In this document: positions 35,016 through 36,758 of the stretch, in pieces
How the letters are laid out: each line of letters opens with the position of its first letter
Numbering within the stretch: the first letter of the stretch is position 1
From: Dehalococcoidia bacterium
Lineage (GTDB): Bacteria > Chloroflexota > Dehalococcoidia > Bin125
NCBI GenBank assembly: GCA_965204335.1
Contig: OZ241982.1
Span: forward strand, 2,889,691 to 2,953,690
DNA: 64,000 bases
Direction: 5' to 3'
Program-made: the position numbers and the translations under genes
Notes under the pieces: generated by a model
Told to the model about the DNA's origin: nothing
Seen by the model: the letters and a program-made list of their open reading frames with translations, nothing else
The model's database searches: none

Positions 35016-36758
35016 ATGATCATGCGATACAGCGATGACGAACTGCGTGCCAGGCTCCGCTTGGGCGAAGACACGCATTGGGAGTTCAAAGGGATTGAGT
35101 TTCGAGGTGACGAACCTGTCAGTGGACAACGCGACACATGGGCAGACGAGATCGTCGCGTTCGCCAACGCGCAGGGTGGCCAACTGCTGCTAGGCATATC
35201 GGACCACGGGGAGCTTCAGGGCCTGACCCGTGAACAGCTTGACCGCGTTGAGCGCCACATCATCGAACTGTGCCGTGACTCAATCAACCCTCCGATTCCT
35301 CCGGCTACACACAAATTCGAACTGGACGGCAAGGCATCCCTTCTGGTCGAAGTTCAGACAGGCTACGCCCAGCATGAATACAAGGGCCGTGCCTTCACAC
35401 GTGAAGGCAGCTCTAAACGCCTGCTCTCGCCGGATGAGCGACTGCGACTCGCCCAACGGCGTGGACAGGCGCGATTCCGCAGCTTTGACGAATCACCTGT
35501 TGCGAACACGGGAATCACCACCCTAACGGAACGTCTATGGAAGCCCTTGCTCAGTGCTGACCAGCACACCGAACCCGCGGTTGGCTTGCAAAAGCTCGGT
35601 CTCCTCACCGACGATGAACACGGAATTCAACGGGCATCCGTTGGCGGTGTCCTGTTGTGCACCGAGCGTCCCGAAGAGCTCATGCAGCAAGCCGTCATCA
35701 TCGCCACGAAATATCACGGTCGGGACGAATCTACACACCAAGTGGATACACAAACGATCACCGGCCCACTTCAGCGTCAAGTGGCAACAGGAGTGTCATT
35801 TGTCCGACGCAATATGTGGGTTGGGGCAGTAAAGGATCCTGGCCGCTTCGATTTGCCCGAATACAGTTTGGAAGCAGTGTTCGAAGGCCTGGTCAACGCG
35901 GTTGCCCACCGAGATTATACTGCGCGCGGCATGCGTATTCGGTTACGAATGTTTGACGATCGACTCGAGATCTGCTCTCCGGGGTCATTGCCGAATGGAA
36001 TCACGATTGATCAGATGGGCGCGTTACAGGCCACGCGCAATGTGGTGATTGCTTCCAACTTGAGCCGAATGCGCGTCTCCGGCATTGAGGGCTCCGAAGA
36101 CCGGCGATACTTCATGGAGACGCGCGGCGACGGCGTCATACGGATCCAGCGAGCGACACATGCGCTCACAGGAAGGATGCCTCGATTTGAGGTGATTGAC
36201 GATGTCGAGTTGCGACTCACCATCCCCGCAGCCCTTCCCTCCGCTGATTCTTTTCGGACCCACATCAATATCAAAGCGGATGGGAAGCCGGTCGAGGACA
36301 CGAACGTGCTGGTGGTATTCCCAAATGGTACCTATCGACAGGCAGTCACAGATCGACTTGGTGTCGCATCACTCGATCTATACACAGGAACCTTGCCAAT
36401 GACGGTGTATGTCGCTTCGACAGGCATGGCAGGACGCGTCGTGCAGGAGTGGATCCCTGCTGAATCACAGCTCACAATTGACCTCAAGCCGCTGCCTGGC
36501 GGAGGATCGGTGATCATACCGGATCAGACCGGACACATTCCGGTGATCCGTGGACGACTGAATCCCATCCTGGACGACTTGAACAGGGCGTATCTCTATG
36601 CCTCAAACGTCGCCATCAACGACGGGGAAGCGCAGCCTGTGGCGTTCCGGCCGGGCGACGAAGAACTCAAACTCGTCGATGCGTTCGGAAACGGTTGCTA
36701 CATTCGCATCGTGGCGATAGTAGGCAGCTCGTCTCTGATTGAGTATCGCCCTGAGTAG
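35016..36758 (+). CDS. AlbA_2 (Schlafen-like) + HATPase_c_4 fusion protein with extra ~200 aa C-terminal domain; AT-richer than the flanks
   Basis: N-terminal ...[11 protein letters not shown]...[23 protein letters not shown] is the AlbA_2/divergent-AAA DNA-binding domain. Mid-region ...[39 protein letters not shown] is the HATPase_c_4 (RecG C-terminal-like) signature. The last ~200 aa are unassigned. Confidence 0.65.
   Translation: [580 protein letters not shown]

Follow-up and report, generated by a model that had tools for sequence, protein, structure and literature searches.

Introduction

Prokaryotic Schlafens are phage-triggered tRNases that confer phage defence (PMC13056530, Nat Microbiol 2026). 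Schlafen-GHKL proteins form their largest class, accounting for 34–59% in two 2026 surveys, and Slfn-HisKinase is the commonest architecture (PMC13056530); the SLFN and GHKL domains together have been named the "Schlatpase" supradomain (bioRxiv 10.64898/2026.05.29.728809). Here we describe a gene of this kind in a 64,000-nucleotide stretch of DNA from a Dehalococcoidia bacterium (GenBank assembly GCA_965204335.1, contig OZ241982.1, positions 2,889,691 to 2,953,690, forward strand), referred to below as the window, in whose numbering all positions are given. Its 580-residue product ends in a module of two beta domains (residues 403–580) that is unannotated: we found no description of it in the literature searched or in four family libraries (Pfam, NCBIfam, PHROGs, and PADLOC).

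Two described systems are particularly close. In RzAgo, the SLFN-pAgo protein of Runella zeae, ATP binding via E314 and N318 leads to tetramerisation, which pairs single-lobe Schlafens into an active tRNase, and the sensor is the C-terminal Argonaute core; Schlatpase modules have also been exchanged among the genomes of sponge symbionts (Poribacteria) (bioRxiv 10.64898/2026.05.29.728809). In pSlfn5, the sensor is a C-terminal immunoglobulin (Ig)-like domain that recognizes the T5 tail assembly chaperone (PMC13056530). An initial annotation of the window, made from its sequence, regarded the whole class as functionally uncharacterized, a view now outdated by the 2026 demonstrations of phage-activated tRNases (PMC13056530) and ATP-driven assembly.

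We consider it reasonably probable that the gene is a stand-alone, single-protein anti-phage system of the abortive-infection type, belonging to the Schlafen/Schlatpase group and brought by horizontal transfer into a defence hotspot that acdA and a rhodanese gene flank in a sponge-type Dehalococcoidia genome. The family offers a tractable case for finding the trigger of stand-alone Schlatpase proteins. Its module is compact, strongly conserved, confidently modelled, and separable from the effector; natural proteins also pair it with TIR, caspase, PIN, and other heads, and its genomic slot has natural empty, GmrSD, and Mrr alternatives.

Domain architecture and family

The gene and its domains are as follows.

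35016..36758, + strand: complete gene for a Schlafen nuclease, GHKL ATPase, and tandem beta module (580 aa plus stop; >120 full-length homologues, AlphaFold2 model, dN/dS)

35016..35465, + strand: Schlafen/AlbA_2 nuclease domain, residues 1–150 (Pfam PF04326, catalytic residues, fold matches)

35493..36221, + strand: GHKL (Bergerat-fold) ATPase region, residues ~160–402 (Pfam PF13749, PADLOC, invariant motifs)

36222..36485, + strand: C1, transthyretin/CarboxypepD_reg-like beta-sandwich, residues 403–490

36486..36755, + strand: C2, second small all-beta domain, residues 491–580 (no family model in Pfam, NCBIfam, or PHROG)

The open reading frame (ORF) begins with ATG and ends with TAG at 36756–36758. 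Pfam places SLFN_AlbA_2 (PF04326) at residues 18–137 (E-value 1.5e-19; 71.1 bits against a cut-off of 25.3) and HATPase_c_4 (PF13749) at residues 305–402 (E-value 3.6e-18), in agreement with the domain calls of the initial annotation. PF04326 followed by PF13749 in a single chain is the composition of the Schlatpase supradomain. Residues 139–305 have no Pfam match at E ≤ 10, and neither Pfam nor the modelled structure, in which the C-terminus is all-beta, revealed a helix-turn-helix (HTH) or helicase domain in the 580-residue protein.

The catalytic motif is intact, as is a putative ATP-binding motif. The nuclease motif E18-x4-E23-F-K25 (E18-DTHW-E23-F-K25) is encoded at 35067–35090 and D63 at 35202–35204; E18, E23, K25, and D63 are invariant in 35 homologues and, in the family profile, align to the catalytic E..E.K and GV.D of SLFN13 (5yd0) and SLFN12 (7eg0). 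In the same set, the GHKL N-box residues E290 and N294 (E290-x3-N294) do not vary, nor do D315 and G323 of the loop, and we take the DRLEICSPG323 loop to be the G-box equivalent. E290-GLV-N294 has the spacing of RzAgo E314/N318, the two being compared by spacing alone. The PADLOC SLFN-pAgo model PDLC02394 aligns with residues 42–395 through positions 57–427 of its 1121.

An AlphaFold2 model of the whole protein, built on 35 homologues, has a predicted local distance difference test score (pLDDT) of 87. The closest solved fold is 3LMM (DIP2311), with a Foldseek E-value of 2.5e-17 over ~410 columns and a profile E-value of 2.3e-9, followed in the Foldseek ranking by the SLFN11/12/13/14 nuclease domains and the SAMD9 tRNase, and then by GHKL kinases.

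Full-length homologues (~580 aa, 53–93% identity, 99–100% coverage) occupy more than 120 database clusters and originate, where a source is named, from metagenome-assembled genomes (MAGs) of Chloroflexi, Gemmatimonadetes, Latescibacteria, and Gammaproteobacteria. Across this family, which spans several phyla, the tail is thus a constant component. An exact-sequence look-up found no database record identical to the 580-residue protein. Variation is greatest in C1, whose median identity to the window protein is 43%, compared with 55–60% elsewhere. All domains are under purifying selection: against the allele of the related locus L001 (89% amino acid identity), the ratio of nonsynonymous to synonymous substitution rates (dN/dS) is 0.09 for the whole gene and, within it, 0.03 in the GHKL region, 0.12 in C1, and 0.14 in C2.

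Two shorter cluster representatives, P0122 (316 aa) and P0249 (507 aa), have an N-terminus like that of the window protein's family (MTMAYTDDEIRR...). In P0122, the module (residues 146–315) directly follows the Schlafen start, with no GHKL region; either assembly has produced an artefact, or this protein is a natural deletion variant with Slfn plus module, an architecture like that of pSlfn5.

The C-terminal tandem beta module

Residues 403–580 have no match in Pfam (E ≤ 10), NCBIfam, PHROGs, or PADLOC, and a profile of the module found nothing among PDB sequences (best E-value 0.96). Modelled alone, the segment forms two all-beta domains with a pLDDT of 93. The initial annotation had described an unassigned C-terminal domain of ~200 residues lying beyond the usual two-domain form; the segment is indeed unassigned and a distinct module, while its length is closer to 178 residues, and "usual two-domain" is a misnomer for a class in which many members end in an HTH domain (for example, 3LMM).

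C1 has the seven-stranded beta-sandwich of a transthyretin-like fold. Its sequence (residues 403–489) does not match CarboxypepD_reg (PF13620) at E ≤ 10; among 95 homologous proteins, 33 do match PF13620, many of them below the gathering score. The modelled fold of C2 could not be placed by itself. A Foldseek search of the module against viral structures returned only generic Ig-like or CarboxypepD_reg matches (TM-score ≤ 0.4), giving no evidence that it mimics a particular phage protein.

Conservation was assessed on 113 near-full-length module copies drawn from different architectures. Twelve positions are at least 90% conserved: G449 in C1, and G497, G506, P509, G513, L515, D520, R524, Q540, P541, D555, and G558, which form a conserved signature within C2. 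Across these copies, C2 is better conserved than C1.

Module mobility among effector heads

A profile of residues 403–580 recovers 639 clusters at 50% identity. Head domains were tabulated on 95 representatives of the module matches, among which 10 carry a Schlafen domain and 22 a GHKL domain. TIR-type heads (TIR_2, TIR, SEFIR, and ThsB_TIR) account for at least 12 proteins. Other heads are AAA_14 with DUF4143, PIN_8 and PIN_12, Ser/Thr kinase, M48 peptidase, N6 methylase, dockerin, and a caspase of the EACC1-associated type. A trypsin-like protease head carries two to three module copies, and tandem copies also occur in kinase fusions. Behind a DUF4062-GHKL head, the module is followed by a Fic-like_C domain, which we interpret as a winged helix. 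Among the protease and dockerin proteins, several have apparent signal peptides (N-termini judged by eye).

Modules behind the TIR, AAA_14-DUF4143, and DUF4062-GHKL heads are 47–52% identical to that of the window protein, which is as near as the modules of Schlatpase proteins from other phyla. The module was never found in phage and plasmid collections, where the Schlatpase part is present alone, on conjugative plasmids and on phages of Gordonia and Mycobacterium. A module mobile across heads with a conserved G/P/D/R/Q signature is a new finding of this study.

Direct evidence of recent head swapping comes from an array in locus L072 (5893–12425), also seen in L073. It comprises, in this order, one Schlatpase-module gene (584 aa), two TIR/SEFIR-module genes (373 and 372 aa), and a module-less TIR gene (491 aa), and the three modules, standing on different heads, are nearly identical. 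The island has a GC content of 0.477, compared with 0.54–0.55 in its flanks. Each of the three module genes is followed, with a 4-nt overlap at its stop, by an 80-aa ORF; these ORFs are 84–89% identical to one another, have no Pfam or NCBIfam match, and show only weak PHROG matches. The array may mean that the module can travel as a cassette with a small partner gene. A search of the window and all loci found such an ORF only in L072 and L073, and it was rejected as a component of the window system.

The acdA–rhodanese slot

34950..36769, no strand: acdA–rhodanese slot, a variable defence hotspot of this Dehalococcoidia clade (37 related loci)

The Schlafen gene is flanked by a divergent rhodanese gene, whose start codon ends at 34949, and by a convergent acdA on the minus strand, whose stop codon lies at 36770–36772. 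The intervening gaps of 66 nt (34950–35015) and 11 nt (36759–36769) are exactly those of the initial annotation. A scan of GTDB genomes with AcdA places the host within a clade of Dehalococcoidia (Chloroflexota) MAGs. Many of these bins (SB066x, RHO, IRC, and bin125) come from marine sponges.

Across 37 related loci, the slot is empty (19–262 bp) in 10, holds a member of the window protein's family in 11 (52–89% identical to the window protein), the type IV restriction enzyme GmrSD in 7, and other cargo in 9. The last group consists of Mrr_N with Mrr_cat (L027); an N6_N4 DNA methylase with a 256-aa ORF lacking a Pfam match (L029); an AAA_15/AAA_21 and DUF3226 pair (L044); LysM or coiled-coil membrane proteins in four loci (L009, L016, L030, and L032); and larger insertions or rearrangements in two (L017 and L031). 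The rearranged slot of L031 contains, at 10783–11022, an 80-residue module fragment 52% identical to residues 489–568 of the window protein, probably a decayed copy of a Schlafen-module gene. With the sole exception of L017, cargo-bearing slots have a GC content 0.02–0.15 below that of their flanks.

Genomes with equally related flanking genes hold very different alleles (L001, 89% identity; L002, 57%). Slot alleles differ among themselves (52–89% to the window protein) no less than they do from their counterparts in other phyla, with respect to which a neighbour-joining tree without support values shows them as paraphyletic.

In unrelated genomes, the gene is again solitary, and adjoins insertion sequence (IS) elements and type I restriction-modification (R-M), MmeI, type ISP, ThsB_TIR, and Kiwa genes; no neighbour is conserved alongside it across contexts. 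The description of the gene as solitary, and of its class as frequent in variable or defence regions, thus fits both the alternation within the slot and the neighbourhoods of homologues elsewhere. Read from gene content, these contexts are the signature of a defence hotspot with a self-sufficient single-gene system. The acdA–rhodanese slot is identified as a defence hotspot, in 37 Dehalococcoidia loci, for the first time here.

Next to this slot lies another variable one, the rhodanese–pth junction, which is closed in the window (33328–33359). It contains two Mrr_N genes in L001 (6446–8307) and GmrSD in L002 (4416–6272), and extra DNA of 1.5–3.6 kb in several other relatives (gap loci L012, L019, L025, L027, L040, L043, and L044).

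Base composition and upstream sequence

GC content by sliding window is 0.556–0.588 within the Schlafen gene and 0.64–0.71 in both flanks. The gene as a whole has a GC content of 0.570 and a GC content at third codon positions (GC3) of 0.617, compared with a GC3 of 0.79–0.91 in the adjoining genes. Of 45 window ORFs with a length of 200 aa or more, it has the lowest GC3 (the other 44, 0.824 ± 0.056 [sd]; z = −3.7). The initial estimate by eye, an AT-richer gene of about 56–58% GC, is therefore borne out by the computed 57.0%. The foreign composition together with a dN/dS of 0.09 indicates a functional gene that is being maintained.

A recent transfer linking the lineages of the window and L001 was considered and rejected: the synonymous divergence (dS) from L001 is 0.60 for the Schlafen gene, equal to the 0.55 of flanking acdA. 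The gene therefore predates the L001 split, with vertical inheritance since. On this dating, its low GC content is not a sign of recent arrival, and has been kept since that split.

35004..35009, + strand: −10-like box TAGAAT, 6 nt upstream of the ATG (no Shine-Dalgarno sequence; conserved in alleles)

The L001, L002, L020, L024, L028, and L049 alleles have TAGAAT equally far from the ATG; TACCAT takes its place in L042 and L043, and TAAGAT in L023. The position of the box is kept in ten other Dehalococcoidia alleles, which otherwise have little upstream sequence in common. It is probable that TAGAAT is a promoter travelling with the gene and giving a leaderless mRNA, a proposal for which conservation of the hexamer is the sole basis. 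A two-hexamer sigma-70 scan did not call a full promoter at the 5' side of the gene, and a terminator scan found none at its ends.

Two repeats were rejected as insertion scars. An 18-nt direct repeat (34943/36703; 16/18 matches) is no more than chance would produce. The 5' end of the gene (35049–35071) and the 3' end of acdA (36846–36868) form a 23-nt inverted repeat (20/23 matches), also considered as a recombination site; it was judged a coincidence because the convergent genes both encode ARLRL(G/Q)E with similar codons.

Other features of the window

A REP-like G/C-rich palindrome, TCTCCCCCCGCTNCGCGGGGGGAGATG, occurs at 38204–38230, 39079–39105, 42829–42857, and 44815–44841, with none expected in shuffles; those copies that were placed relative to genes are intergenic. 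The "empty" acdA–rhodanese slot of L008 contains a G/C-rich hairpin-like sequence similar to this element that does not match its pattern.

A second patch of low GC content (39150–40750; 0.54–0.61) lies between acdB and an AMP-forming acetyl-CoA synthetase gene. Within it are a small HTH_17-type gene (~39209–39430, + strand), identified through the same gene call in L001 and L002; a 189-aa ORF (39372–39941, − strand), whose sole match is the phage family phrog_8582 (E-value 3e-6); and a gene for a 160-aa coiled-coil, tail-anchored membrane protein (40118–40600, − strand), relatives of which are found in the acdA–rhodanese slot of L030, L032, L009, and L051.

A 351-aa coiled-coil protein (31656–32711, − strand) overlaps the end of pth, and is beside pth in most relatives. 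It evolves fast, at 51–79% identity against 90–97% for acdA; it has weak PADLOC matches to NsnC (1.6e-7) and LmuB, and no Pfam family.

Proposed function and alternative explanations

Under the anti-phage interpretation, the TAGAAT box would serve as the Schlafen gene's own promoter and yield a leaderless mRNA. By analogy with RzAgo, the GHKL region would bind ATP via E290 and N294 and form a dimer or tetramer, joining two single-lobe Schlafens into a two-lobed active nuclease, with the catalytic residues (E18, E23, K25, and D63) held inactive until infection is sensed. The tandem beta module, with its variable C1 and conserved C2, would be the input, binding an infection-associated ligand and releasing or assembling the nuclease. 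Cleavage of tRNAs would then stop translation and reduce phage yield. Given the lack of a conserved partner gene, the protein is expected to act alone.

The initial annotation offered the tail as either an effector or a sensor. That so many different effector heads precede it is consistent with a sensor or adaptor, with the Schlafen domain as effector; a sensor role is thus predicted for this distinct module, and an effector role becomes the less likely of the two.

Several observations weigh against the anti-phage interpretation. Two Slfn-HisKinase systems tested gave no protection against the phage panel used, and ~30% of surveyed pSlfn genes are not near defence genes (PMC13056530). The module is unusually conserved for a sensor coevolving with phages (~50% identity across heads and phyla, C2 more than C1, dN/dS 0.12–0.14), which points to a conserved ligand or a structural role. 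It also occurs in apparently secreted and dockerin proteins and with trypsin, caspase, and M48 heads, and so is not exclusively an intracellular immune sensor. Together, this conservation and the apparently secreted carriers speak less for a fast-coevolving sensor of phage proteins than for a conserved ligand or a role in assembly. The substrate, finally, could be other than tRNA.

It is tempting to speculate that residues 403–580 are an effector-agnostic input module, in which a variable sandwich and a conserved beta domain (D520/R524/Q540/D555) read one conserved infection- or damage-associated ligand on behalf of eight or more head types (Schlatpase, TIR/SEFIR, DUF4062-GHKL, caspase, PIN, trypsin, Ser/Thr kinase, and AAA_14-DUF4143). 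We put this forward tentatively, as possible rather than probable. A single conserved ligand would explain the ~50% identity across heads and phyla. If true, the module would be a general "sensor cassette" of prokaryotic immunity, with a role like those of the SAVED, CARF, and Avs sensor domains. Finding what the module binds would reveal how an entire group of single-gene systems detects infection.

The best surviving alternative keeps the defence nuclease and makes the module a constitutive oligomerisation, scaffold, or localization element, with infection sensed, for example, by the GHKL region (via the nucleotide pool or the level of ATP) or by the Schlafen domain, which would bind nucleic acid directly. 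The high conservation of C2 across heads and phyla would suit such a role, as would the nature of the heads it accompanies, which are induced-proximity effectors (TIR, caspase, trypsin, kinase, and Schlafen), and the tandem arrangement of two to three copies in trypsin and kinase fusions. RzAgo, which tetramerises by its Schlatpase part alone, also speaks in its favour. However, most Schlatpase proteins have no module, so basic assembly does not require one; C1 varies more than any other region, as expected of a specificity determinant; and pSlfn5 provides a precedent for a C-terminal beta-sandwich on a Schlafen acting as a phage sensor. We regard this alternative as unlikely, although the conserved module and its apparently secreted carriers leave it appreciable weight.

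A Schlafen-family nuclease acting on DNA or on other RNAs (rRNA or mRNA), or a toxin of inter-element or inter-bacterial conflict rather than of phage defence, is less likely still and in our view improbable. The substrate is not readable from sequence, the Schlatpase relatives on conjugative plasmids and on Gordonia and Mycobacterium phages fit a conflict between mobile elements, and the apparent signal peptides and dockerin domains of module relatives hint at non-cytoplasmic targets in some lineages. Against this, the characterized Schlafen nucleases with the motif that were considered (human SLFN11, pSlfn5, Cash, and RzAgo) all cleave tRNA, and the window protein has neither a signal peptide at its N-terminus nor a secretion-associated domain.

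A housekeeping nucleic-acid-binding protein, transcriptional regulator, or "RecG-like helicase", as in older AlbA_2 plus HATPase_c_4 annotations, is suggested by the names of homologues ("putative DNA binding domain-containing protein"), of plasmid relatives ("transcriptional regulator" or "helix-turn-helix domain-containing protein"), and of PHROG 12156 ("DNA helicase"), but is highly improbable for a protein with no HTH or helicase domain, an all-beta C-terminus, and invariant catalytic nuclease residues, encoded by a gene of foreign composition that is absent from 26 of 37 sister loci (the slot being empty or holding restriction-type genes), a dispensability not expected of a core regulator.

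The main value of the locus lies in an unannotated, effector-agnostic module and a well-defined hotspot. The former is an annotatable domain for defence-prediction tools, covered by no Pfam, NCBIfam, PHROG, or PADLOC model; the latter documents defence variation in uncultured, sponge-associated Dehalococcoidia.

Comparison with known systems

The window protein shares with RzAgo the order of SLFN_AlbA_2 then GHKL, a third, putative input domain at the C-terminus, and, judged by spacing, an E-x3-N motif, as well as a single-gene organization, defence-island context, and spread by horizontal gene transfer. In contrast to RzAgo, it has no MID, PIWI, and PAZ core, and so no guide RNA or nucleic-acid-guided sensing; the place of an Argonaute core of ~650 aa is taken by a tandem beta module of 178 aa. 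Its chain ends at residue 580, and the match to the PADLOC SLFN-pAgo model is confined to positions 57–427 of 1121, which sets it outside the SLFN-pAgo family.

Similarities to pSlfn5/RorSlfn5 comprise a Schlafen effector with the Ex4(E/D)xK motif (a tRNase there and, by analogy, in the window protein), a previously unannotated C-terminal beta-sandwich, a single gene, and, in both families, a beta region more variable than the nuclease. However, pSlfn5 lacks a GHKL region and has one Ig-like domain resembling integrin ectodomains, whereas the window protein has a GHKL region in between (~160–402) and a transthyretin-like sandwich followed by a second, conserved beta domain; the two beta regions are set apart here by description. 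The Pfam-based scheme of PMC13056530 would class the window protein as Slfn-HisKinase, overlooking the tail.

DIP2311 of Corynebacterium diphtheriae (3LMM) and AlbA_2-HATPase_c_4-HTH proteins have the same Schlafen-GHKL core. Proteins of this type end in a helical or winged-helix domain, and 3LMM has no assigned function; the window protein matches no HTH family and ends in two beta domains, residues 403–580 being all-beta. With mammalian SLFN11/12/13/14 and the SAMD9 tRNase, it shares the nuclease fold and the catalytic E, E, K, and D, and by analogy it may also be an antiviral tRNase governed by fused sensor domains. Mammalian Schlafens have two lobes per chain and helicase or other C-terminal domains, whereas the bacterial protein is single-lobed and would have to oligomerise.

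Known CarboxypepD_reg/transthyretin-like domains (PF13620; 5AQ0, SusC NTE 9HFJ) are mostly extracytoplasmic accessory domains, and the window copy has no Pfam match; no published link between domains of this type and Schlafen was found in the literature searched. By its domain content, the protein is a member of the pSlfn family that carries the Schlatpase supradomain, and is distinct from SLFN-pAgo, pSlfn5, and 3LMM-type proteins.

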